This document shows, piece by piece, positions 4,847 to 18,780 of a stretch of 64,000 nt of DNA (position 1 is its first letter; every line of letters starts with the position of its first letter). The notes under the pieces are model-generated. The model did no database searches. It had not been told where the DNA came from and saw nothing but the letters and a program-made list of their open reading frames with translations. The DNA comes from Lachnospiraceae bacterium. Its GTDB lineage: Bacteria > Bacillota > Clostridia > Lachnospirales > Lachnospiraceae. The DNA is taken from assembly GCA_024403355.1 (NCBI GenBank), contig JAKSRW010000012.1:16797-80796 (forward strand). Direction: 5' to 3'. The position numbers and the translations under genes were made by a program.

Positions 4847-6178
4847 TTATATAAACACTACCATATAGTGCGGCAAAGTCTCTTTAACACCAGCTTTCCC
4901 ATTTCTGTTGGCAATAAGTTTATATGCCGACGAAGGGCTAAAATCACTGATAAAGGAATTTAAAGATACCGAAGCAGTATTACCTGCTTTTACCTCTAAC
5001 GGCACAACAGAACCGTCCTTTTCCAGCAAAAATTCCAGTTCATGATTATCGTCCGGCTTATAATAATAGAGCTTATACCCACGTTTAACCAAGGATTCCG
5101 CAATAACATTCTCATATAAGCCACCCCTGGCATTTCCTTTGATAGTGTTATTAAGTATAGCCCTTTTGGTTTCGAATCCATAAAGGCAAGTTAACAAGCC
5201 CGTATCATTGATATACAATTTAAACTGATCCTCTTTCGCATTAGCCATAAGTGGAATAAACGGTTCAGATATATTATAACAGGGATTTACCATACCTGAA
5301 TCTATAAGCCATTGAACACTTCCGCCATACTTTCGACGTGTCTGTCCCTTTTCGACAGTAGAATACTGAAACTTCTTTAATTCCTTTGCCAATTGCTTCG
5401 GAACCGCGTCATAACACATCCGAACATATTGTTTTTCCCTGCCCTTTGCATGTTTGGAAATATCGTCCTGATATTCATTAATGATACTGTTCTGAATATC
5501 AAATACCCTATTAAAATCCTTATATTGCACAAAATCTTTTACTACTTCTGGCATTCCGCCAACCACCATGAATTCCCTGAAAAGCGACTCGTATTTATTA
5601 TGTACAGACTCATGAATCTGCTCATCCGCCCCCAGGTACCTTTTCAGTTCTAAAACAGAATCCTTTGAATAACCATTAGCCCATAAAAACTCTTCAAAAT
5701 CCAACGAGCACATTGTTAGCGTACTCTCATATCCGACCGGAATAGATTCAACTTCATCAACTTCCTTATCTGCGTCCATACCATATGCTAAGCCCAATAA
5801 GGAACCTGATGAAATAACATCAAAACGAAAATCTTCCGCAAGAAACTTTATAGCTGTACGGGCATTCCCGCAACGCTGTATTTCATCAAGAAAAATAAGA
5901 GTGTTCCCCGGAACCAGTCTAATCCCCGGTATATTGGCAGTGATTCTCTTATAAACAGCATCAGAAGTGATTTCGCCATCGAAAATAGCTTTTAATTCCG
6001 GATGTTCATAAAAATTAATCTCTATAAAAGAATCATATTCGTTTTCACCAAATCTTTTTATTATATATGATTTTCCTACCTGCCTTGCACCCTTAACTAT
6101 CAAACATTTACTCAGTTTCTCTTCTTTCCGTTTACGCTTCCACTCTATAAGCTCTGAATATATCTTTCTTTCAAGCAT
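4847..6178 (-). CDS. AAA+ ATPase of the DUF4143 / AAA_14 family
   Basis: Walker A motif GARQVGKS; Walker B motif LIFLDEIQ. The start is moved to MLERK (RBS AGGGGTG) because the first 17 codons of the tracked ORF lie inside a direct-repeat array. Confidence 0.7.
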   Translation of the reverse strand: MLERKIYSELIEWKRKRKEEKLSKCLIVKGARQVGKSYIIKRFGENEYDSFIEINFYEHPELKAIFDGEITSDAVYKRITANIPGIRLVPGNTLIFLDEIQRCGNARTAIKFLAEDFRFDVISSGSLLGLAYGMDADKEVDEVESIPVGYESTLTMCSLDFEEFLWANGYSKDSVLELKRYLGADEQIHESVHNKYESLFREFMVVGGMPEVVKDFVQYKDFNRVFDIQNSIINEYQDDISKHAKGREKQYVRMCYDAVPKQLAKELKKFQYSTVEKGQTRRKYGGSVQWLIDSGMVNPCYNISEPFIPLMANAKEDQFKLYINDTGLLTCLYGFETKRAILNNTIKGNARGGLYENVIAESLVKRGYKLYYYKPDDNHELEFLLEKDGSVVPLEVKAGNTASVSLNSFISDFSPSSAYKLIANRNGKAGVKETLPHYMVVFI

Positions 6179-6191
6179 TCCGACACCCCTA

Positions 6192-6310
6192 TGCATAAAA
6201 TCGTAATATGATTTTACACTAAAATGCACAAAATCGCAACATCAGTTTTTTTGATTTTTACATAAAATCGTAACATCATTTCTCCATTTTTTGCATAAAA
6301 TCGTAACATT
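6192..6310. repeat. Four direct 18-nt repeats (GCATAAAATCGTAACATN) spaced 33-34 bp apart, iteron- or operator-like
   Basis: Copies at 6192, 6226, 6260 and 6293, in the promoter region of the ATPase gene. Confidence 0.6.
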
Positions 6311-7910: not shown

Positions 7911-8006
7911 ATAAAAGGTGCTGCCGATAGACGGCTAGCCCTCGTGTTGATTCAAAACGACTTCCGTTCTTAATCTTGCTAGGGATCTAACGGCGGTCGT
8001 TTTTTG
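7911..8006 (+). ncRNA. antisense sRNA (putative type I antitoxin), copy 2
   Basis: Promoter TTGCAT-17-TATTAT at 7876-7904. Same terminator as copy 1; about 95% identical to it. Confidence 0.5.
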
Positions 8007-8151
8007 TATGTTTATGTGATTTATGTTTTTTATGTGTATCGTCGTCATTTCTGCGAATAAATCCTTCGATTTTTTCCACAAATCTTCCGACAGATACACC
8101 GACTATAAGTACTGATATTATAAGACCTAATATCGATAAATAATCATTCAT
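7987..8151 (-). CDS. 54-aa type I toxin-like membrane peptide, copy 2
   Basis: Identical peptide to copy 1. Promoter TTGATT-17-TATAAT at 8259-8287 on the minus strand. Confidence 0.5.
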   Translation of the reverse strand: MNDYLSILGLIISVLIVGVSVGRFVEKIEGFIRRNDDDTHKKHKSHKHTKNDRR

Positions 8152-8535
8152 ATTCACACCCCCCTTCTAACTCGGAGGGCTCAACAACAATCCCTCCTTA
8201 AACAGAGGGCCAGCCGCCTACCGTTATGGCAACACCTTATCTCTTACGAGACACTATTATTATATCACAAACCGAGCAAATAATCAAGAACACTTGTTCG
8301 GCATTTTATGACCAAATTGTTTACATTGTAAAAAGCATTTCATTCTTTAACTCTGATATCTTGCTCTCACCATTTCTATAATCGATATCAATCCCCGGTT
8401 GTACATTATATACATATACGCCAAAACGAATCCCTGCTCCATTATCTTCGACAGAATATGCCTCAATAAAAACACCACTTGCTACTAAATTACTACTTTC
8501 AAATATCGGAGTTTGGTTCCATAAAGTTCTCCAGT

Positions 8536-9993
8536 CTAATACTCTATAAATTTTAAATTACCCATTCCAAGAATTATTTTTTTTCCATCTAAAACAATAA
8601 TTTTAATCCCTTTTATTACTGCAGGTGATGATGCAATATTCCCCGATACCTTTAAAGCATTAATCATATTGCCAAACTCATTGTTCAAATGCCCTAAAAT
8701 GTTTCCATCCCTCTCTAGAATCATATAACCATTCTTTTCTTCTACAATAGAAACATAATATTCTCCATCTTTTATCACATCAAAATCAGCAATATCATTT
8801 TCATCTACGACCACGTGTGTAACACCATAAAGATTTCGGCAGCACCATCTTGACTTATTATCATACTTATACTCGTAATATTCTCTGTCAGGAATACTTA
8901 ATTCATACACTTCATCCATATTTGACAATAGTTTCCAAATTTGTAGATTATCTTTTTTACTTCCCCCTTTTAACACATTACTTGTAAGTACAATCTTTGC
9001 ATTTGTACTTGCAAATTTGTAATCATCCAAAACAACAATATTTACCCTATCATCATTCGAAAAGCCATGCTTTATTTCGCTCAAAAGCAACATACTTGAT
9101 ACATATGCTTTTTCAGCTAAATTATCTACCAATATTACATTTTTATCCGCAGAGAAATATTTTTCCTCCAGTTCTGTAAATTTATAGCAATTCCGTATGC
9201 GATTCCGTACACGTTCCTCATATAAATTCTTGTTTATGTCGTCAGTCTCCGTATTATTACCGGGAGTTTCTATGTTTTTTACAGCATGTCGAGATTCTTT
9301 TTTTTCTATCTTTTTTGTTTTTTTTCTTGCAATAGTTTTTCTATCAGCTACTTCATCAACATATCCCCAAATAGGCACCAATTCTTCATTTTGATAATCA
9401 TTGTTATCTGTAATTCTCCATTTATGACCGATAACAACCATTCTCCGTCCGTTTAACGGATTAATCATATAAGTATTGGTATCCTCTTTTGCATTATAAT
9501 CAGGTATTACCGGATTAGTATTGATTGGAAATTCTAATCCATCGTTCAATGGATTACATTCATACCTCATCATCTCCTCTTCCGATATCATATCGACTTT
9601 ATAATACAACGATAGCTTGCTTGGATTACCATATAGCAATCGCTCTTCGTCAGTCATACTCCACTCTTTAGCCATTTCATCTGAATAATCGGGATTACAC
9701 TCTAAAATATGACTACATTCTCTGTTAATACATGCACATACGACCTTATTCTTTTCTTTAGAATAACCAAAGCAAGGATCATTCTGGGCATAAATGCACC
9801 TACATTCTGTCTTTCTTATTCCATGTTGAACCTTTGATAAATTAGCAACTCTAAAGTCAACTTCTCTTCTTTTATATATAGCCCGAATGCACTTATACTC
9901 TACAACTTGGTCCACAAATGTTTGATCAAACATTGGATCTTCTTCTCTACTAAAGAACACATTGCTTCCAACAACAATATTGCTTTCAAACAT
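8536..9993 (-). CDS. hypothetical 485-aa protein; Cys-rich N-terminal region, no recognised domain
   Basis: RBS GAGGTGG. Third gene of a translationally coupled operon with an Hsp70-like ATPase. Contains a CRCIYAQNDPCFG…CACINRECSH cluster. Confidence 0.6.
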   Translation of the reverse strand: MFESNIVVGSNVFFSREEDPMFDQTFVDQVVEYKCIRAIYKRREVDFRVANLSKVQHGIRKTECRCIYAQNDPCFGYSKEKNKVVCACINRECSHILECNPDYSDEMAKEWSMTDEERLLYGNPSKLSLYYKVDMISEEEMMRYECNPLNDGLEFPINTNPVIPDYNAKEDTNTYMINPLNGRRMVVIGHKWRITDNNDYQNEELVPIWGYVDEVADRKTIARKKTKKIEKKESRHAVKNIETPGNNTETDDINKNLYEERVRNRIRNCYKFTELEEKYFSADKNVILVDNLAEKAYVSSMLLLSEIKHGFSNDDRVNIVVLDDYKFASTNAKIVLTSNVLKGGSKKDNLQIWKLLSNMDEVYELSIPDREYYEYKYDNKSRWCCRNLYGVTHVVVDENDIADFDVIKDGEYYVSIVEEKNGYMILERDGNILGHLNNEFGNMINALKVSGNIASSPAVIKGIKIIVLDGKKIILGMGNLKFIEY

Positions 9994-10004
9994 GAAACCA
10001 CCTC

Positions 10005-11477
10005 TTAATCAATCTCAGCATTCTTTTTAGGCGCTGGTGCGTCTAACTCATATGAAACTTTTAAATTTGAATATGTCCAAACTCTAAATACATCATCAGG
10101 CATACGATTAGAATGAATCTTTATCCTAAATACCATATCTGCATCTATATAACAGGATATCTGTAAATACTCATCACTGAACCCTCTTAATTTAACAGGA
10201 AAATATTCAACAAAAGACTTGTCCCCATCATCCTCACCATCAGAAAATACAAAACGTGCTTCCTTTGTTGCTTCAACAACACCAAATTTGATACACTTTT
10301 CTTCTGTCGGAACTCTTTGTCCTACTTTTAATAACGGATAAAATTTATTATTTGATTGAATAATTCCAATAGGTTTATTCAATGTATAACATCCTGGTCT
10401 ATAGGATATTTCAGCAGCTCCAGATCCTATATCCCACATCGCCGTACGCGGAAATAATAGTTTTTCTCTGTCAAAATATTCTAATAATTTAGACTGCAAT
10501 GGTCTAAGGCGGCTTGAACCGCCTTCGCAAATAATGCAATCTATGGACTCTCTATTCATTCCAGCTTCAGATAATGCTTTTAACAAGCAATCTATTGCCT
10601 GATCCACTTCATTCTCTATAATTTCATAGAAATAATCATAATCAATCTTTTCTAATGCTCTTCCAAATTTATCAAGCTTAGCTATTGAAATAGTTGCTAT
10701 ATCTTCGTCAGAAAGATTACACTTTGCTTGTTCACAAAGATTCAATAATCTAAGCTTAAATTCCGGGGCAAGATCATCATATGTAAAATTTTGATTTGTT
10801 TTTCTAGCCACTCTAGTACAGACTTTTTCTGCAATAATTCTATCAATATCGTTTCCTGCTAATGGCATACCCACTGTGGCAAGCTCATTAATGATATTGT
10901 TCTCGATTCGTAATACTACAACATCAAGAGTACCGCCACCCCAATCAAACACGGCTACGTTCTTATACTTTTTCATTTCGTTCAAACGACTACAGTATGC
11001 AGAAGTCGGCTCACTGATGAACATCTTAATCTTTATGCCAGCTTCTTTTGCAGCTCTACGAACACTATTCTTTTTCTTAGGAGAAAATCCTACTGGCACA
11101 GCAACTACAGCCTGGTCTAATTCCATCCCCCCCGCAGTCTTATCTTTAACATTTACCTTCAACGCTTTGAATAATTCAGTTGCTATATCTATCGGTGTCC
11201 ATTTTCTTCCAGCAATCTCCCATTCCTTATCTTCATCTATAACACTCTTAATAGATGAGAATACTCGGTAATCAGCAGAATCGGCAATTGTGTTTTTTGC
11301 ATCTAATCCAGTTTTAACCTCACCTGTTTTTTTGTTAATTGCCACAAAAGAAGGTAGTGGATTTCTTTCATCCTCACCTATTTTCCTTGCTTCACCTACA
11401 CGTTCGCCATTAATATCAGCAATGGCTACCACTGCGCTATTAGTTGTTCCAAAGTCAATTCCAAAATAATTTGCCAT
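10005..11477 (-). CDS. Hsp70/DnaK-superfamily ATPase (actin-like NBD) with a truncated or divergent C-terminal region
   Basis: N-terminal GIDFGTTNSAVV phosphate-1 motif. DWGGGTLDV phosphate-2 motif. A CEGGSSRLRP adenosine motif. Only 490 aa with no canonical substrate-binding domain or lid. Confidence 0.75.
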   Translation of the reverse strand: MANYFGIDFGTTNSAVVAIADINGERVGEARKIGEDERNPLPSFVAINKKTGEVKTGLDAKNTIADSADYRVFSSIKSVIDEDKEWEIAGRKWTPIDIATELFKALKVNVKDKTAGGMELDQAVVAVPVGFSPKKKNSVRRAAKEAGIKIKMFISEPTSAYCSRLNEMKKYKNVAVFDWGGGTLDVVVLRIENNIINELATVGMPLAGNDIDRIIAEKVCTRVARKTNQNFTYDDLAPEFKLRLLNLCEQAKCNLSDEDIATISIAKLDKFGRALEKIDYDYFYEIIENEVDQAIDCLLKALSEAGMNRESIDCIICEGGSSRLRPLQSKLLEYFDREKLLFPRTAMWDIGSGAAEISYRPGCYTLNKPIGIIQSNNKFYPLLKVGQRVPTEEKCIKFGVVEATKEARFVFSDGEDDGDKSFVEYFPVKLRGFSDEYLQISCYIDADMVFRIKIHSNRMPDDVFRVWTYSNLKVSYELDAPAPKKNAEID

Positions 11478-12574
11478 TATTCTACCTTAATTCCTTTTTT
11501 ATCTAATATCTTAAATATATTTTCTATTTTTACCCTGTATATCTCTCCTAATTGGATATCCATGTCATCTGCTTCCGATGCCTTAAAATCTCTATATTCA
11601 GCTTTTAATTCGTTAGCGATATCCTTTAAAAGAGCTCCCTCATCATTTTTCTTTAATGCATCAAAAGCGTCATTTATGGCCTTGCGCTCTTCAATTTCCT
11701 TTCCTGCTTCAACAAGACTCTTCTGTTGCTCTTGCATATTTCCATTCAATTCGCAAATTTGTCTTTCTAAATCATTCTTTTGTCTATTCAATTCTTCAAT
11801 TTGTAAATTGAGTTCAACTATATCTTTTTGGAGTTTATCCTCTCTGTAGACACCGTCTCTAAATTGCTTTTCGACTTTTGTATAATGTTCAAGAATAGAT
11901 TTTATATCATCTATCTTGCTCTTAGGTATTTGTTCTTCAATTCTCTCTCTTTCTATTGCATCTGCTGCTATTTTTTTCCCCTTATTCAACCACTTATTTA
12001 AATCATAATAATCTTTCAATGTGTCATTTTTATTAATAATATCTATGGCTATTTCAATAAAACTATTCACTATTTGGGGTGCAATTTTTAAATCTTCCCA
12101 TTCAGGAAACTTGTTATACTGTTTTTGCAATTCACTAAAACAATAATCTACTAATATAGGCCCATATACACTAGCAATTATAGGCTTTTTATCATCATTA
12201 ATTAAATTAATAAACGACCTAAAAACTCCTGGACAAATGACAATAACATTCTCATTTTTAATAAGCGTCATATATATCATTCCAACCAGTAATTTGACAG
12301 ACGCATTTTTTTTATTATCCTTAAACACAGTGTTTTTCTTTATTTTTTTCCAGCAATCCTGTATATCAGATTTTTGAGCTGACTCAAAATAATCAAAAAG
12401 CGCAGATGCCCTATCAATATCAATTCCATTAATTATAACTGATATAATTTCATCTGTTGTCTTTTCGTCATTTAAATACTTCTCTAATAATTCTGAATAC
12501 CTACGTGCAAGACTATAATCATCAAGATGATCTAAACATTCTTTCTGTAATTCTCTTATTTCATTTATTGACAT
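11477..12574 (-). CDS. hypothetical protein with a long C-terminal coiled coil (GrpE-like architecture?)
   Basis: 365 aa. Its stop overlaps the start of the Hsp70-like gene. Heptad-rich region between aa 200 and 330. Confidence 0.55.
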   Translation of the reverse strand: MSINEIRELQKECLDHLDDYSLARRYSELLEKYLNDEKTTDEIISVIINGIDIDRASALFDYFESAQKSDIQDCWKKIKKNTVFKDNKKNASVKLLVGMIYMTLIKNENVIVICPGVFRSFINLINDDKKPIIASVYGPILVDYCFSELQKQYNKFPEWEDLKIAPQIVNSFIEIAIDIINKNDTLKDYYDLNKWLNKGKKIAADAIERERIEEQIPKSKIDDIKSILEHYTKVEKQFRDGVYREDKLQKDIVELNLQIEELNRQKNDLERQICELNGNMQEQQKSLVEAGKEIEERKAINDAFDALKKNDEGALLKDIANELKAEYRDFKASEADDMDIQLGEIYRVKIENIFKILDKKGIKVE

Positions 12575-12810
12575 CTTACCAGTTCTCCTTTACAGTCATA
12601 AAAACATATCATTTTCAAAGTAACACATATTGCAAAAAACTATTATAATAATACCATAATTATATGATTTTTACAACTAAACAGACAAAAAACAGCCCAA
12701 ACAAAAACAAATCACATATATGCTCCTAACCAATTCAATATAAGAATTTTGTTCATTTCGTTGAATTGTTCTAACAATGCAACCATTTCCACTCAACGTC
12801 AAAAGCCTGC

Positions 12811-12845
12811 CGGCCACATTTGTCCCGCAGGCTTAAATACATATT
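12811..12845 (-). terminator. intrinsic terminator downstream of the acid-tail gene cluster
   Basis: Stem AAGCCTGC…GCAGGCTT followed by a T-rich tract on the minus strand. Confidence 0.45.
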
Positions 12846-12968
12846 TTCTCTTACCCCATATCCTCCACACATTTTTCAAAATGTGCACATCCAATACACA
12901 GCTTCCTGCACTGCCGCTCATTCCGTCGCAGGTTCCATAGCCAAAACAGCAGCCTGTTCATCATTTAC

Positions 12969-13412
12969 TCAGTAATTCTCCTCCCAGTAGTCATACGCAT
13001 CGTCCCAGTTGTCAAAATCATCCTCCCAGTCGTCGGCGAAATCATCGGCGTTGCTGTATTTATGTACATCGTAAATGTCACTGTAGTACACATGATAGTT
13101 TTTATCATTTGTGGAAGATGTATTTGTGTTCTTTTTCTTACCGTTTTTTTCCCATTCTTTTAGCTTTTGCATTCGCTCATAGCTTTCTTGACGTTTTTCT
13201 TCATCTTTCTTTATATGGTAATCACAGAATATTTCCTTCTCATCGCGGTAATTATCGCAGCCATCCTTAAGGCACTTTTTCGGAAGGTCCGAGAAAAACA
13301 TATGCCAAATATAAAACAGAATGGCTGCCAGAATCAGCCAGTCCGAAAGATCAAGCTTAGTTCCATTTTCCATGATTATGCTCTCCTCTTGCTGTAATAA
13401 ACCTCGTACCAA
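12969..13412 (-). CDS. single-TM protein with a C-x2-C…C-x2-H motif and a conserved aromatic-acidic C-terminal tail
   Basis: TM helix LILAAILFYIWHMFF. Tail IYDVHKYSNADDFADDWEDDFDNWDDAYDYWEENY. Paralogous to the 13585-14523 and 15889-16818 genes. Confidence 0.6.
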   Translation of the reverse strand: MVRGLLQQEESIIMENGTKLDLSDWLILAAILFYIWHMFFSDLPKKCLKDGCDNYRDEKEIFCDYHIKKDEEKRQESYERMQKLKEWEKNGKKKNTNTSSTNDKNYHVYYSDIYDVHKYSNADDFADDWEDDFDNWDDAYDYWEENY

Positions 13413-13588
13413 CGCGCCGTGCGTACGTAGGGCTTAGTCGGTGCATGCTCTGCGCAGCGCACCTCCTTCTGGAAGAAGGCGCAGGTCATATAACCCTCAC
13501 AATGCTCCCTGTCTGCCAGAAGCTTAGTGCATCGATTGATATCCGCATCCAAAGTGCAGATGTACTCTTCAGAATCTCCCATACTCAA
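13376..13588 (-). CDS. small Cys/His-rich protein (70 aa)
   Basis: Overlaps both neighbours (ATGA coupling at 13585-13588). Motifs CTKLLADREHCEGY and CAEH resemble the C-x2-H-x-C units of the upstream gene. Confidence 0.45.
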   Translation of the reverse strand: MSMGDSEEYICTLDADINRCTKLLADREHCEGYMTCAFFQKEVRCAEHAPTKPYVRTARWYEVYYSKRRA

Positions 13589-14523
13589 TAGTTATCCTCC
13601 CAGTAATCAAAGGCCTCATCCCAGTCATCAAAATCATCGCCCCACTCATCTGCGAAATCATCAGCATCGTAATAATTGTGTACATCATATGGATCCGAAG
13701 CCCCTGTCACTTGGCCCGAGCTGCTGCCGCTACTGCCTGTCGAAGACGAATATGTCGTATTCTTATAAGAATATGGCTTACTTTTATAAACGGTCGGTCT
13801 CTTCCAAGGATTATCACGGTAGTCGCTTATATGGAAAACCACACCCTCTACAACATTCACTGCAAATATTATGTCCCTGTCCTTGTAATAGTAATATATG
13901 TCAGAACTCTTATACCCTTTGCCTGTACCTATATGATTCCCTCCGTAGAAATACGCCGTGCCCAGGCCGGTACTTGAAAGATATCTCTCCGACATACCCA
14001 CATACGGCAATTCAACAGATTCTCCCTCGCATTTGTGGGTATAGCAATAATTGCTTGAACCGATTTTAACATTTTTACAGTTCGTGAAAACGCAGGTATG
14101 GTCCACACAATACTCGCCCCCTTGAATTTCCAATTTATCACAATCATATTCCGAACATTGTTTCTCTGCCTCAGCACGCCTAGCACTTATTTGTTTTTGA
14201 ACTCCATGATGATATTCACACAATTGAAAATACTCATCGTAAACTTCGTCACGGCAAGCAAACGCACCACAAGTATGAGCAAAACAATACTTTCTATTTG
14301 TCAGCTGCATTTTCATGCATAACTTTCCCCCGGAATATTTACATCTTAAGCCAAAAAAATATACAAGAAATCCCACTACAATAGCAACACCTATTACCAC
14401 AAGTATAACGATAGTCTTTTTGGCATTCTTTTTATTAAATTTTATATTGTCTACAGCTATCCAGATACCAAAGGACAAAGCCATAACACTCAGTATAATT
14501 ATATATATTTTTGTTTCCAACAT
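13585..14523 (-). CDS. two-TM protein with repeated C-x2-H-x-C-x4-5-C-x10-11-C-x2-H units and the conserved aromatic-acidic C-terminal tail
   Basis: Motifs YCFAHTC…CEYHH and YCVDHTC…YCYTHKC. Tail DPYDVHNYYDADDFADEWGDDFDDWDEAFDYWEDNY. Confidence 0.65.
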   Translation of the reverse strand: MLETKIYIIILSVMALSFGIWIAVDNIKFNKKNAKKTIVILVVIGVAIVVGFLVYFFGLRCKYSGGKLCMKMQLTNRKYCFAHTCGAFACRDEVYDEYFQLCEYHHGVQKQISARRAEAEKQCSEYDCDKLEIQGGEYCVDHTCVFTNCKNVKIGSSNYCYTHKCEGESVELPYVGMSERYLSSTGLGTAYFYGGNHIGTGKGYKSSDIYYYYKDRDIIFAVNVVEGVVFHISDYRDNPWKRPTVYKSKPYSYKNTTYSSSTGSSGSSSGQVTGASDPYDVHNYYDADDFADEWGDDFDDWDEAFDYWEDNY

Positions 14524-14690
14524 ATTAGTTGCACAATCCTTTCCAAATACGATATTTCATCATCCAACAGAACTCCGCAGCAACTTAAAAATCATAATCG
14601 TCAGAATCCTGACTCGCGTCCTCTACAGCAGAATATCCTCTTCCTACATCAGAGCTGTCCGGTCATCAGAATTTCCTCCTCATATTATTT

Positions 14691-14939
14691 TTATTTAGAC
14701 TCATAATTCTGATACTTATAACAATCCCAGCAATATATCACGTCACTTCTCCAACAGTTATCCCCACAGCAAATACATTTTTTCTCATCCTTACCATTCT
14801 GCTTCTTTTTCAGATCAACAAATACATTTTTACTTCTGTTAACAGTCATATTAATCATATTTTTCCTCCACAAATACATTTTCCAGTTTCTTAAACTATA
14901 CTCACCTAAGAATTCTCTTGTAATCCTCCCGATATTCAA
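14691..14939 (-). CDS. small Cys-rich protein; the true start may be an internal Met
   Basis: Motif CICCGDNCW…YCWDCY. Confidence 0.3.
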   Translation of the reverse strand: MNIGRITREFLGEYSLRNWKMYLWRKNMINMTVNRSKNVFVDLKKKQNGKDEKKCICCGDNCWRSDVIYCWDCYKYQNYESK

Positions 14940-15249
14940 ATGATAACATGATACAAGGGAGTTTTATCGGACTCTGAGAAACATTTAAAGAACATTTTAT
15001 AACTTCTATGTCGCCACTAAGCCGTCCTCCGCTGCGATGCCATTGTCATTATTACCACCAGCAGGTCATCTATCGGGCCCGGGCAGGCATCAATAGGTGA
15101 TATAACATATAAAATAGCTAATACAAGTAACATACCTTTCATTCCATTCTTCATAACGATTTCCTCCTGGTAAATAATTTTCTTTTTCGTTTTAGATTAT
15201 AGCGAATACTTCATAACCCTTTTTGCAAATAAACTGTAATAATTTTGAA

Positions 15250-15405
15250 TCAGTAGCCATAGCCACGTACTTGCTTACGCGTGTCAGCCTTTAACTCATT
15301 TCTGGACGGACGAGTGGCAAGCTTGTGATCCATAGTTCCCATTTTAATGTTAATCATAACTCTGTAGCGTTTAGCACACTGCTTCTTCATATTCTTCTCA
15401 AGCAT
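15250..15405 (-). CDS. 51-aa basic protein of unknown function
   Basis: Strong RBS GGAGGAAATTACA-ATG. Sequence MLEKNMKKQCAKRYRVMINIKMG… Not in the ORF track because it is under 60 aa. Confidence 0.3.
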   Translation of the reverse strand: MLEKNMKKQCAKRYRVMINIKMGTMDHKLATRPSRNELKADTRKQVRGYGY

Positions 15406-15888
15406 TGTAATTTCCTCCGTTTAGTTTGAACTTTTAACTTTGTCAACAAATAATGGTTTCATCGTTTCTTTTGTTGTTATGTAGCTATTATAAAGCAGAA
15501 TAAAAAAGCCTTTTCGTAAAAAAGTGTAAAAAAGAAAGCCTTTCCTAAAAACAGAAAAGGCTATTTTTCATAAAATATCAAATTGTGATTCGTTCAATGT
15601 CCTGGCGGGCTTCATCGGTTTTCTAGCCAAGCCCATCGCCTCCCAAACGGGCCTTTAGTAAACTTTTAAGCTCAGTAACGGCCTCTTCGCCGGAGTGATA
15701 CCTTCCGGTATCAACTAATCTATTCTCAAATTCATCAAACAAATCTGCCTGACTATCATAGTATAATTTCCTCAAAGCTGAACTACTTCTATAAAAGCCT
15801 GTAACAATCTACGTTTTTTTAACAGTTCCTGCCATTCTTTCATACGTAATGTCCTCCCTTTACTTGATCGATTTGCCACAATCCCCCC

Positions 15889-16818
15889 TCAATAATTATC
15901 CTCCCAGTAGTCAAAGGCATCATCCCAGCTGTCGAAATCGTCCTCCCATTCATCCGCGAAATCATCAGCACTGTAATAATTATGGACATCGTAAGGGTCC
16001 GCATAGAATGAATAACCCGAATAGCTATTTTTTTGTCCACCGGAGCTTCCGGATGAATTATTCTTATGCTTGTTATTATCTTCATCCAGCTTATATCTGT
16101 AGTCATTCGTAGAATAAACATAACCATACTTTGCATCCGCATGAAAAATCTGTTTTCCATCAACCACCCAGTCATAGGCCATATGCCTCCCGCCCCCTAT
16201 AATATCCATTTCTATCTTGGATTTGCTCGGTACTCCCAGTGAGCAAACATCAAAATATATCGTTTTCATACCAGCTCTGGGTAACTCGCCCGCATAGTGT
16301 TTTTCCTCACTGTAGAACCTGATATTCTCCGGATTCTTTTGTTTTAAAGCAATGACATGCGATTTAACTTCATAAAAAAAGTCCTGATACTTTCCTGAGT
16401 ATTCCCAGTTAAAATAGTGATCCACTATCTCAAATATGTCCCTGTAATTAACATTCTCTACAACTGTCTCGGAATATATAGAATCTAAAACTTTACTGTT
16501 ATCCTCCAAAAAGATATCCAACCAATAAAGGGCTTCGGCATCTTTATTCCCATATTTAGCCATTGTATCTAATTCTATTCTTTTATCGCACTCAAGATAT
16601 TCCCCTTTCTTAAGTGTATTATATGCTTCCTCGAGCTTATAATCGTCAGTGTTTATCCGGTAATAACGAACAGTTAATGCAATAATAACTATCAATACAA
16701 CCGCAGCAACCGCGATATAACACCTTATAATCTTACGCTTAGAAGCTGTTGTGCGTCCCTCTAAATTAAGCATTCCAAGCGAAATTACACCTATTATTCC
16801 CATTATTATTCCCGCCAT
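15889..16818 (-). CDS. two-TM membrane protein with the conserved aromatic-acidic C-terminal tail; third paralog
   Basis: Tail DPYDVHNYYSADDFADEWEDDFDSWDDAFDYWEDNY. The middle domain differs from the other two paralogs. Confidence 0.65.
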   Translation of the reverse strand: MAGIIMGIIGVISLGMLNLEGRTTASKRKIIRCYIAVAAVVLIVIIALTVRYYRINTDDYKLEEAYNTLKKGEYLECDKRIELDTMAKYGNKDAEALYWLDIFLEDNSKVLDSIYSETVVENVNYRDIFEIVDHYFNWEYSGKYQDFFYEVKSHVIALKQKNPENIRFYSEEKHYAGELPRAGMKTIYFDVCSLGVPSKSKIEMDIIGGGRHMAYDWVVDGKQIFHADAKYGYVYSTNDYRYKLDEDNNKHKNNSSGSSGGQKNSYSGYSFYADPYDVHNYYSADDFADEWEDDFDSWDDAFDYWEDNY

Positions 16819-16832
16819 TCAAGATAACCCCC

Positions 16833-17393
16833 TCAGATCCTCGACAGCACTGCAGGCATCGCCTCACCATTGATATAAAGCCTCGGTATCCCGTCATGTG
16901 TAACCCTGATGCGGTACTGGGCCAGGCTGTATTCAGTACCCTCCAGGGAAATAGTCTTCGTAGCCCTGCCCATATCGAAGCTGCTCGCGCCGAAGCAAAT
17001 CAGATATTTCGGGGCATTTCCCTGCATGATGATACAGTGACCTATGGGACGGCGGCTGATTCTCGGACCGGCGGCCGGAACCTCCGGCTCAGGCTGATAA
17101 CGATTAATAAAATCCTGCAGCTTTTCGCAGATTTCTGCTACTGTTCCTGCCCCGCAGCCGCGAATCGAATTAATCTCGCCAAGCCGCTTCGCCAGATCTC
17201 CTATTGTAAATATCCCGCCTCTTTTCAGGCAGTGTTCAGCCCTCGGCTGAAACTCCAGCGTATCTACCCCCTCCTTGCAATCATAAACCTTTCGAAGTTC
17301 GGACTCGTCCAGTCCCACAGCTTCATTTCCCTTTGCATCCGATGCTTTCTTATCAACCTTATTATTCAATCTGCTCTTCATGTGATTTCCCAT
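16833..17393 (-). CDS. standalone RNA polymerase alpha-subunit C-terminal-domain (alpha-CTD)-like protein
   Basis: The segment LEFQPRAEHCLKRGGIFTIGDLAKRLGEINSIRGCGAGTVAEICEKL matches the RpoA CTD helix-hairpin-helix signature (…SVRSANCLK…I…GDL…L…GKKSL.EI). Lies 15 nt upstream of the 15889-16818 gene. Confidence 0.6.
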   Translation of the reverse strand: MGNHMKSRLNNKVDKKASDAKGNEAVGLDESELRKVYDCKEGVDTLEFQPRAEHCLKRGGIFTIGDLAKRLGEINSIRGCGAGTVAEICEKLQDFINRYQPEPEVPAAGPRISRRPIGHCIIMQGNAPKYLICFGASSFDMGRATKTISLEGTEYSLAQYRIRVTHDGIPRLYINGEAMPAVLSRI

Positions 17394-17974: not shown

Positions 17975-18529
17975 TTATTTATTTGTATCTGCCGATTCTT
18001 TCTCTGCTTCAGGTGCTTTTCTTTCTTCAGGCTCTTTTCCTTCTTCTGCCTTCATATGCTCGTATCTGATACCTGCCGCCTCATCCTTCACTGTCGACAT
18101 GATAATATAGGTGGAAATACTTTTTATTACCTTTCCGTTTTGTCTGTAAAGCCTGTTTATCAGCTGATTGAAACTTGCATTATATAAATAGACGCCCTCT
18201 GCCATAATGAGGTCATTACCGCTTATAACGTGAACTTCCTTTATCATCCTTTCGCGGGATAAAATCTCAAGAACGCTCTCATAATTGTCCGGATATACAC
18301 CCAGCATCATCACAAACCTTGTCCCCATTTCAGGTACAGCCTTTTGGTTAATCACGGTCTTATATCCGCATATCACGCCCTTAGTTTCCAGGGCATCCAT
18401 CCGGGCCTTTACTGCCACTCGGGAAAGTCCTACCCGCTCTCCTATTTCAGAATAGGTCAGACGCGCATCGTTTTCTATTACATTCAGTATTTTATTATCC
18501 TTTTCATCAAGTTCAGAAATATCTATCAT
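17975..18529 (-). CDS. Lrp/AsnC-family transcriptional regulator
   Basis: N-terminal HTH (DNKILNVIENDARLTYSEIGERVGLSRVAVKARMDAL) plus a RAM domain. Confidence 0.85.
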   Translation of the reverse strand: MIDISELDEKDNKILNVIENDARLTYSEIGERVGLSRVAVKARMDALETKGVICGYKTVINQKAVPEMGTRFVMMLGVYPDNYESVLEILSRERMIKEVHVISGNDLIMAEGVYLYNASFNQLINRLYRQNGKVIKSISTYIIMSTVKDEAAGIRYEHMKAEEGKEPEERKAPEAEKESADTNK

Positions 18530-18530
18530 A

Positions 18531-18780
18531 ATTCCTCCTAATGCAACGAATGCAATGAGTTGCTCATGGAGTAGATTGGTGCGCTTTTTGCACCAATCTT
18601 GCAGTTTGAAAATTTATTTTCAAACTTAACCTCATGCTAAGAGCGTAGCGATTAGCTAATGGTTTAGATTGGTGCGCTTTTTGCACCAATCTCGCAGTTT
18701 GAAAATTCATTTTCAAACTTTAACCTCCGACTAAGAGCATAACAATTAGCTAATGCTTGATATTGGTGCTTTTTCATGCA
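18531..18780. repeat. Two tandem copies of the compound-palindrome repeat; it contains TGAAAAT-N-ATTTTCA, an Lrp/AsnC-operator-like palindrome
   Basis: GTTTGAAAATTTATTTTCAAAC at 18604-18625 and GTTTGAAAATTCATTTTCAAAC at 18705-18726. AGATTGGTGCGCTTTTTGCACCAATCT hairpins. A leading TCCTCCTAATGCAACGAATGCAATGA motif. Confidence 0.6.

Follow-up and report, generated by a model that had tools for sequence, protein, structure and literature searches.

Cellulosomes and many sets of wall-anchored proteins first came to light through a constant C-terminal handle shared by exported proteins that are otherwise unrelated. Here, we describe a candidate for such a handle, a short acidic and aromatic tail that closes three proteins of 134, 312, and 309 amino acids (aa) encoded in a 64,000-nucleotide (nt) stretch of a gut or rumen Lachnospiraceae metagenome-assembled genome (MAG; GenBank GCA_024403355.1, contig JAKSRW010000012.1, positions 16,797 to 80,796 of the forward strand; the whole stretch is referred to as the window). 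In its design, the tail resembles dockerins (PF00404), which fold only with Ca2+: both are small acidic helix-loop-helix elements at the C terminus of unrelated exported proteins of Clostridia, both follow a flexible Ser/Thr-rich linker, and both combine a constant handle with variable cargo. However, the tail is half the size of a dockerin, and alignment and structural model alike show a single hairpin instead of a duplicated 22-residue F-hand. The window tails also lack the D-x-N-x-D-G loop, and the proteins that carry them, unlike dockerin proteins, are anchored at the N terminus as well and have no known cohesin-like partner. The dockerin profile in Pfam matched neither the three window proteins (E ≤ 1) nor 117 family members (E ≤ 0.01), and an EF-hand pattern for the canonical Ca2+ loop, D-x-[DN]-x-D-G-x-[IV]-x-x-x-[DE], found no match in the six-frame open reading frames (ORFs) of the window.

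Other terminal modules, i.e., WxL, SLH, CWB2, and LysM domains and choline-binding repeats, likewise retain varied exported proteins and are aromatic-rich, but they exceed the tail in size, occur as repeats, and tend to be basic or neutral, whereas the tail is strongly anionic and present in single copy; library scans detected none of them in the tail proteins. Nor do the tails contain an LPXTG-type motif or a hydrophobic stretch, their ends being acidic or aromatic. Membrane-anchored anti-sigma factors offer a further likeness, since there, too, the gene for a small membrane protein lies beside one resembling the transcription machinery, often with a regulator. An anti-sigma factor, however, uses an N-terminal domain in the cytoplasm to bind its partner, whereas the tail proteins have few cytoplasmic residues and carry the module on the predicted outer side.

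The tail and its family

The three genes are all on the minus strand, at 12969-13373 (MJ131_05315; 134 aa), 13585-14523 (MJ131_05325; 312 aa; the ORF matches the family member P0001 at 100% identity), and 15889-16818 (MJ131_05345; 309 aa; also an ORF with a product in the NCBI annotation pipeline [PGAP]), and PGAP labels every one of them "hypothetical protein." An initial annotation, made from the letters of the sequence, had given their lengths as 147, 312, and 309 aa. The latter two were retained, but the first was replaced: a TTG start at 13412 would yield 147 aa (12969-13412), while the ATG at 13373, which has a GAGGAG site 9 nt upstream and gives the same protein as PGAP, is better supported. 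That the three genes end in near-identical tails was confirmed by the ORFs, by alignment, and by comparison of nonsynonymous and synonymous differences (pN and pS). The last 36 residues of the 134/147-, 312-, and 309-aa proteins read DIYDVHKYSNADDFADDWEDDFDNWDDAYDYWEENY, DPYDVHNYYDADDFADEWGDDFDDWDEAFDYWEDNY, and DPYDVHNYYSADDFADEWEDDFDSWDDAFDYWEDNY, respectively, with the consensus DPYDVHNYYxADDFADEWxDDFDxWDxAFDYWEDNY. Profile scan and alignment placed the tails of the 134- and 309-aa proteins at residues 99-134 (12972-13079, minus strand) and 274-309 (15892-15999, minus strand), and that of the 312-aa protein spans residues 277-312 (13588-13695, minus strand); a six-frame profile scan found exactly these three copies in the window. 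Each has 15-16 Asp/Glu and 10-11 Phe/Trp/Tyr residues and a net charge of -14 to -16.

Over these 36 residues, the window copies are 69-82% identical as protein and 74-83% identical as DNA. Synonymous sites were saturated (pS 0.78-1.07), while pN was only 0.07-0.13, which argues that the likeness has been kept by selection on the protein and reflects neither a fresh duplication nor chance. The substitution pattern thus points to old paralogues under purifying selection and rules out that recent duplication or gene conversion alone produced the likeness. Tail cassettes do appear to recombine. At the corresponding locus of a sister strain (L002), whose flanks are 91-99.8% identical to the window, the DNA of the tail (6031-6141) is 87% identical to the tail of the window 312-aa gene (13585-13695) but only 74% identical to that of the orthologous 309-aa gene (15889-15999), and the linker of this 306-aa version also differs from that of the window 309-aa gene. 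Such a pattern suggests that tail cassettes are exchanged between paralogues, and these mosaic 3' ends are consistent with recombination between paralogous tails. Even so, the chance that a recent local duplication or conversion of a functionless low-complexity fragment explains the likeness is negligible, given the saturated synonymous sites of a conserved protein sequence, the invariant aromatic and Ala positions, and the occurrence of the tail in many other genomes.

To place the tail in a wider context, a profile built from nine sequences was scored against 1.84 billion cluster representatives (clusters at 50% identity). It matched 242 clusters at E ≤ 1e-3 and 17 at E ≤ 1e-10; an alignment-based search with the tail returned short fragments only. 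The match ended within three residues of the C terminus in 180 of 201 retrieved proteins (~90%); P0126, P0137, and P0195 instead carry the module at the N terminus or internally. The tail was found in 18 GTDB species, 16 of them Lachnospiraceae or Lachnospiraceae-type genera and the other two MAGs labeled Oscillospiraceae and Bacillota. Among the carriers are Eubacterium xylanophilum ATCC 35991, strain NC2008, Agathobacter, Cuneatibacter, and Choladocola, to which cluster look-ups added Dorea longicatena (WP_028087353.1) and Mediterraneibacter faecis, all under the name "hypothetical protein"; E. xylanophilum and D. longicatena are cultured. A further 80 tail loci came from metagenomes, mostly human-gut assemblies. 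The M. faecis case (P0036; L026, 3001-3198) is a 65-aa ORF that is barely more than a tail, with no signal sequence, transmembrane (TM) segment, or in-frame upstream extension, and it adjoins fragments of a WYL-domain regulator. Its exact sequence was indexed in 554 assembly-collection blocks and seen on 278 contigs, and the ORF represents either a remnant or a soluble form of the tail that stands alone.

Two subtypes can be distinguished: a short-loop form (...EWxDDFDxWDxAFDYWE...), to which the window copies belong, and a commoner long-loop form (...EWAEEFGDGxYDDGYDDAYDYWE...), whose loop (GDGNYDDGYDD) is only approximately like a canonical Ca2+ loop. Across 67 diverse tails, the columns F, A, F, A, and Y are invariant, and Y and W are nearly so. 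Across the family, Asp and Glu make up about 43% of the tail, with a median net charge of -17; many tails terminate in HH, NH, or NY. Basic residues (KK, RR, or K-x) often stand just upstream of "DPYDV," but the three window copies have no basic pair there.

The initial annotation had taken the tail for a conserved module on variable proteins that corresponds to no described domain, and this view was upheld. Neither in the window proteins nor in 117 family members did the tail match a Pfam, NCBIfam, PHROGs, or PADLOC family. PADLOC had no match to any of the three window proteins, and the sole PHROG match of the 312-aa protein was marginal and lay outside the tail (E = 0.0053, residues 111-273, function unknown). 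A sequence profile search of the PDB with the tail gave nothing but compositional noise (E ≥ 0.05), the matches to L3MBTL at E of 0.05 or more being dismissed as such, and Foldseek found no PDB match for the model of the mini-domain. A literature search on the tail, the Cys/His units described below, Lachnospiraceae surface proteins, and the stand-alone RNA polymerase-like neighbor returned nothing relevant. The tail was absent from the IMG/VR viral contigs searched, as was a small Cys-rich ORF encoded between two of the tail genes, and a phage origin was rejected. Together, these comparisons indicate that the tail is not an LPXTG-type signal, a WxL, SLH, CWB2, or LysM domain, a defense protein, or a phage protein, and the sequence evidence identifies it as an undescribed, Lachnospiraceae-restricted C-terminal mini-domain of about 36-45 residues.

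Predicted export, cargo, and fold of the tail proteins

We then asked on which side of the membrane the tail lies, using charge-bias and lipobox heuristics on 112 reasonably complete family members and, for the window proteins, membrane anchors predicted from hydrophobicity. In 66 of the 112, a single N-terminal hydrophobic segment has a more positive N-flank than C-flank, i.e., an N-in, C-out orientation; the rest comprised 12 with a lipobox, 9 neutral, 5 with the opposite bias, and 20 without an N-terminal segment, mostly fragments. Lipoboxes or signal peptides are exemplified by LLAVLTG/C in P0188, SVQVG/C in L007, VTAYA/GSG in L082, and SGAGA/T in L015, and clear ones also occur in P0009, P0083, and P0126, in the last of which the tail directly follows a signal peptide and is itself followed by a linker and a basic-ended C-terminal TM segment. 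In the window 312- and 309-aa proteins, a Lys/Arg-rich loop between two hydrophobic segments would leave the C-terminal part outside. Since N-terminal export signals are combined, in some members, with a cargo domain that appears to resemble BamE and BLIP, a fold typical of extracytoplasmic proteins, the tail is predicted to lie outside the membrane; on these sequence features, the tail and the Cys/His units are very probably extracytoplasmic. A cytoplasmic location, such as that of the C-terminal tips of single-stranded DNA-binding protein (SSB) or of anti-restriction mimics, is not what the heuristic export prediction gave.

The 134-aa protein consists of one N-terminal TM segment (residues 12-28), one unit of three Cys and one His (CCCH), a K/N/S/T-rich linker, and the tail. 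The 312- and 309-aa proteins both begin with two hydrophobic segments and carry a putative BamE/BLIP-like domain (ELPRAGM at residue 179 of the 309-aa protein), which a linker joins to the tail. In the 312-aa protein, the segments surround a K-rich loop, four CCCH units precede the domain, and the linker is of the Ser/Gly type; in the 309-aa protein, a helical region lies between the segments and the domain. The upstream regions had been described as divergent, which is broadly correct, except that the 312- and 309-aa proteins share an alpha+beta "ELP-x-x-GM" domain before the linker. In the 312-aa protein, this domain ("ELPYVGM...") covers residues ~171-242 (13798-14013, minus strand), and its fold is putatively like that of BamE (SmpA_OmlA), BLIP, and OsmE lipoprotein domains. 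The LPxGM domain occurs in 19 of the 112 family members and CCCH units in 34, with 1-5 units each; cargo of other kinds carries no annotation.

Repeated Cys/His units had been reported for two of the proteins and for an overlapping 70-aa ORF. The units are real, but they are repeated only in the 312-aa protein, where the four (residues 61-83, 85-105, 123-142, and 144-163; 14035-14343, minus strand) form two C3H-x-C3H pairs. In 2000 shuffles, the mean was 0.0085 units, and none reached four. A motif scan found a single C-x4-C-x10-C-x2-H unit in the 134-aa protein, CLKDGCDNYRDEKEIFCDYH (residues 34-53; 13215-13274, minus strand), and the small ORF MJ131_05320 (13376-13588, minus strand; 68 aa from an ATG at 13582 or 70 aa from a TTG at 13588; no TM segment and no tail) has one looser unit, C-x5-C-x8-C-x2-H; the 309-aa protein and the rest of the window contained no C-x4-8-C-x10-11-C-x2-H unit. 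The spacing C-x4-C-x~10-C-x2-H-x-C... in head-to-tail pairs is also that of zf-C3Hc3H (PF13891) and related eukaryotic CCCH knuckles (zf-TRM13_CCCH, WRC), and the paired C3H-x-C3H arrangement of zf-C3Hc3H is present in the 312-aa protein (61-83/85-105 and 123-142/144-163). The profile scored 16.3 bits (E = 0.012) against the 312-aa protein, below the 27-bit gathering cut-off, and matched 5 of 117 family members at E ≤ 0.01 (best 6.7e-6). However, zf-C3Hc3H belongs to nuclear DNA- or RNA-binding proteins, whereas the units here, with their subthreshold scores, lie in predicted exported regions of bacterial proteins. In an AlphaFold2 model of the 312-aa protein without ligands, the predicted local distance difference test score (pLDDT) was 40-52 for the first CCCH pair and ~80-90 for the second.

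Modeled alone from a 67-sequence alignment, the tail had a mean pLDDT of 84, and ~90 over the module, which was predicted to comprise a short turn and a pair of helices spanning DDFADEWG and DEAFDYWEDN. In the ectodomain of the 312-aa protein, this two-helix mini-domain reached a pLDDT of 93-96, while the preceding 24 residues stayed below 50 and the overall predicted template modeling score was 0.40; in the model, therefore, the parts of the ectodomain behave as independent beads on a string. Across the family, Ser accounts for 25% of the 30 residues upstream of the tail, Lys for 11%, and Gly for 10%, and in the 312-aa protein a low-complexity Ser/Thr/Gly/Tyr/Lys linker (13696-13797, minus strand) contains the residues predicted to be disordered, ~251-274. 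The spacing F-A...W...F (i, i+4, i+8) followed by A..Y-W would fit two amphipathic helices packed through aromatic and Ala residues, a packing that would leave a surface almost wholly of carboxylates.

Recurrent neighbors and strain comparison

Upstream of the 309-aa gene, and ending 14 nt from it, lies a gene for a stand-alone 186-aa protein similar to the C-terminal domain of the RNA polymerase alpha subunit (alpha-CTD; MJ131_05350, 16833-17393, minus strand). The protein matched RNA_pol_A_CTD (PF03118) with 35.7 bits (E = 7.4e-9), above the 23.8-bit cut-off, and library scans identified an AsnC/Lrp-type regulator gene upstream of it (17975-18529, minus strand). Over the 712 kb of fetched tail loci, the sample to which these counts refer, the alpha-CTD profile matched ten ORFs. 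Nine lay within ~1.5 kb of a tail gene (window, L002, L028, L030, L032, L062, L082, L010, and L068), and the tenth, a weak match (E = 1.7e-7), was a 591-aa ORF in L006, ~1.5 kb from a tail gene. With the window and L002 counted as one, and L028 and L030 likewise, a stand-alone RNA_pol_A_CTD gene stands beside tail genes in seven independent loci; outside the window, such genes are at 6688-7053 in L028, 2526-2894 in L032, 12-284 in L062, 872-1240 in L082, 1208-1660 in L010, and 3-206 in L068. Three of these neighbors scored 54-61 bits against Pfam (E 1e-14 to 1e-17), and those elsewhere are 37-41% identical to the window protein over the helix-hairpin-helix region, a level that argues against simple synteny. 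The alpha-CTD-like gene often directly follows an AsnC/Lrp gene, and the cargo of the adjoining tail genes varies by locus. The adjacency pointed out in the initial annotation is thus not accidental, being found in seven independent loci with different cargo, and the link between tail and alpha-CTD is genomic and probably regulatory.

A second recurrent neighbor is a small EF-hand ORF (~75-100 aa, no signal peptide), which was found in 14 of 93 tail loci, always on the same strand and in most cases 15-83 nt from the tail gene (e.g., L019 2213-2488, L049 6144-6425, L053 6117-6398, L015 5012-5236, and L082 1362-1670). These ORFs have one canonical loop, D-x-N-R-D-G-x-L-D-x-x-E preceded by F, and a polyacidic C terminus (...EDAGYDPDDFDDDF); they had no Pfam match, and none is present in the window. 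Basic proteins of ~105 aa with YD/RHS-like repeats, 4-5 copies of G-x-x-G-G-M-N-H-Y-D-x-N-G-x-K-T-G-x-S, stand beside tail genes in five tail-protein groups (L003 7030-7347, L015 4632-4991, L022 4551-4868, and L006 6292-6918), the repeats of L006 being fused to a C-terminal "GCYIATCVYGS...LRRFRD" domain. Export signals are absent from the alpha-CTD-like, AsnC, EF-hand, and YD-like neighbors, of which the window has the alpha-CTD/AsnC type only. A single operon partner for all tail genes was sought and not found, as contexts are diverse and each neighbor is shared by a subset. Of about 105 loci other than the window, two hold tail genes in tandem, L034 (59-490 and 1646-2137) and L063 (881-1735 and 1732-2583, encoding paralogues of 283-284 aa that overlap by 4 nt).

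Within the window, the tail genes had been described as chained by overlapping start and stop codons. This holds for the trio of 312, 68-70, and 134 aa, which is tightly packed through a TTGA overlap or 2-nt spacers, the TTG start at 13588 of the 70-aa ORF overlapping the stop of the 312-aa gene. The 309-aa gene stands apart, 1.37 kb upstream of the trio with several small ORFs in between, and a sequence scan found a terminator-like hairpin with a trailing T-run (15537-15562, minus strand) between the alpha-CTD/309 unit and the 312/68/134 unit. The 68-aa ORF is a singleton cluster in a region of 59% G+C (13400-13499). It is one of three small Cys-rich ORFs that flank the tail genes on the minus strand, with five Cys in the 68-aa ORF (13376-13582), C-x4-C-x2-C-x5-C in a 37-aa ORF (12851-12964), and C-x-C-C-x3-C-x8-C-x2-C in a 56-aa ORF (14691-14861). 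The 37- and 68-aa ORFs sit in G+C peaks (43-59% vs. ~35% nearby), and none of the three had a family match. Between the 309- and 312-aa genes lies a 45-aa ORF (15017-15154, minus strand) with weak, subthreshold likeness to DUF1232/YkvA (PF06803, E = 7e-4).

The sister strain L002 has conserved counterparts of the AsnC and alpha-CTD-like genes, together with an orthologue of the 309-aa gene (P0003; 306 aa in L002). A 7.76-kb segment of the window (8132-15890; compared with L002 6137-6141) is absent from L002; it starts directly after the stop codon of this tail gene and contains small ORFs, the 312/68/134 trio, the 37-aa Cys ORF, and three larger genes, whose products are a 485-aa protein, an Hsp70-like protein, and a coiled-coil protein. 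The junction shows the microhomology ATTAGG-CTTATAATATC, and the far junction lies inside the start of a small TM ORF (7987-8157, minus strand). A fourth, degraded tail copy was sought at the junction near 8131, but the sequence proved to be the start of that TM ORF. The three larger genes, all on the minus strand, encode the Cys-rich 485-aa protein (8536-9993; no family match), an Hsp70-family ATPase (10005-11477; PF00012, E = 1e-36) with no recognizable substrate-binding domain and a weak PADLOC match to PDC-M61B, and the 365-aa coiled-coil protein (11477-12574), whose stop overlaps the start of the Hsp70-like gene; the group (8536-12574) could be a conflict or defense cassette. An AAA_14/DUF4143 ATPase (4847-6229, minus strand) matches the PADLOC candidate defense family PDC-S01 (E = 2e-142) and also occurs in the sister strain. 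A blastn comparison with L002 revealed an intergenic repeat of ~100 bp in at least three copies (1076-1181, 18525-18627, and 18630-18720). Two of the copies stand in tandem in the spacer that separates the AsnC gene from the amidohydrolase gene and give rise to a spurious, internally repeated ORF of 50 aa. Rfam gave nothing in the window between 8000 and 19000.

A proposed envelope role and its alternatives

The tail is a genuine, selected, and undescribed domain family of limited taxonomic spread, for which we offer a role as a proposal. Docking or targeting appears to be the most plausible function, and we tentatively suggest that the tail may be a module, specific to this lineage and probably dependent on cations, by which proteins are docked or retained outside the cytoplasm. 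Support for this view comes from the conserved C-terminal placement, the joining of one module and linker to unrelated cargo, the confidently predicted mini-fold, and the export signals. Each protein would then run from a signal anchor, lipoprotein signal, or signal peptide through a variable cargo (CCCH knuckles, from none to five; the BamE/BLIP-like domain; or domains without annotation) and a disordered Ser/Thr/Gly/Asn/Lys-rich tether to the tail, in which a "DPYDV-x2-Y" clasp and two short helices may pack the invariant Y, F-A, W, F, A, and Y-W into a small aromatic core beneath an acidic surface of net charge about -15. Used as a handle, the tail could tie different membrane-tethered ectodomains to one shared envelope partner, putatively a protein or wall polymer that is positively charged or cation-bridged. 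Divalent cations (e.g., Ca2+), which are abundant outside the cell, would neutralize the charge and so enable the tail to fold or bind, and the adjacent AsnC-type regulator and stand-alone alpha-CTD-like protein may control at least a subset of the tail genes. A metal theme is hinted at by the CCCH units in the same proteins and the EF-hand ORFs nearby.

Several points weigh against this docking proposal. The window tails lack the loop insert (GDGxYDDG) of the commoner subtype, and the tail has no canonical Ca2+ loop. It is doubtful that a chain of 36 residues with a net charge of -15 could fold stably as a monomer unless counter-ions are present, and the high pLDDT may accordingly overstate the order of the tail. 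The topology comes from charge-bias and lipobox heuristics, the window 134-aa protein shows a slight opposite charge bias, and the signal-less M. faecis ORF is conserved on hundreds of contigs. Moreover, most of the 108 loci have a single tail gene, the window, L034, and L063 being the sole ones with tandem copies, whereas a scaffold-type docking system would be expected to have many cargo proteins per genome. Finally, the recurrent neighbors (alpha-CTD-like protein, AsnC, and EF-hand ORF) are predicted to be cytoplasmic, and docking accounts for them solely as regulation. An extension of the proposal, in which AsnC and alpha-CTD control exported tail proteins whose cation-dependent handle plugs into a common receptor in the manner of cohesin and dockerin, the CCCH and EF-hand proteins tying this novel envelope system to the sensing or use of divalent cations, is speculative, and we would not expect it to hold in full.

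The composition of the tail also invites the view that the tail and CCCH units together act as a surface-tethered polyanionic binder or buffer of metals (Ca2+, Mg2+, or Zn2+) that needs no specific protein partner. The abundance of Asp and Glu and the median charge of -17, the many ends in HH, NH, or NY, the CCCH units in about a third of members (34/112), and the directly adjacent EF-hand/polyacidic ORFs (14/93 loci) would all suit such a buffer, yet the strict aromatic and Ala positions and the helix register exceed the needs of a charge reservoir, the module is always single-copy and terminal and never expanded, and the EF-hand ORFs, having no export signals, would belong to a different compartment; we consider it unlikely. 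Less likely still is that the hairpin self-associates, possibly bridged by cations, and so clusters tail proteins on the membrane surface. Each helix does present one aromatic face (F-x3-W-x3-F and A-x2-Y-W), as is typical of small bundle-forming units, and three near-identical tails are encoded together in the window, but like charges of about -15 per chain would repel each other, most loci encode one tail protein, and the AlphaFold2 hairpin is confident as a monomer.

That a dedicated protease, transferase, or secretion step recognizes, removes, or modifies the tail is improbable as well: although the module is at the extreme C terminus in ~90% of members, behind a flexible linker and often just after basic residues preceding "DPYDV," direct inspection found no hydrophobic segment and no LPXTG-, PEP-, or GlyGly-type motif, the basic pair is missing from the three window copies, no protease or sortase is conserved among the neighbors, and the module is N-terminal or internal in P0126, P0137, and P0195. 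The initial annotation had envisaged a docking, targeting, or DNA-mimic module, with the adjacent alpha-CTD-like protein as a candidate partner. As a cytoplasmic decoy of this kind, the tail would bind or sequester that protein, or mimic DNA, and act as a membrane-tethered anti-factor. A decoy is favored by the alpha-CTD-like genes, which stand no more than ~1.5 kb from tail genes of varied cargo in seven independent loci, by the M. faecis ORF without a signal sequence, and by the fact that CCCH fingers and EF-hands are usually intracellular. Against it stand the charge bias (66 N-in, C-out vs. 5 opposite), the 12 lipoboxes, the lipoboxes or signal peptides found even on members beside alpha-CTD-like genes (L082 and L032), the putatively BamE/BLIP-like cargo, whose fold would be extracytoplasmic, and the Ser-rich linkers typical of exported Firmicute proteins. 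DNA mimicry is thus a poor fit to the topology, physical docking onto a cytoplasmic alpha-CTD-like protein is disfavored by the same predicted outside location, and a decoy role seems highly improbable.

Lachnospiraceae are among the most abundant bacteria of the human gut and rumen, and the organization of their cell surface is largely unknown. With the tail as a signature, surface proteins now labeled "hypothetical" can be recognized by sequence as a class, some of them with predicted extracellular CCCH knuckles, which are unusual in bacteria, and the repeated linkage of the tail to stand-alone alpha-CTD-like genes points to an uncharacterized regulatory pairing. As a module common to such different proteins, the tail could reveal a shared docking principle or partner at the surface of these bacteria.

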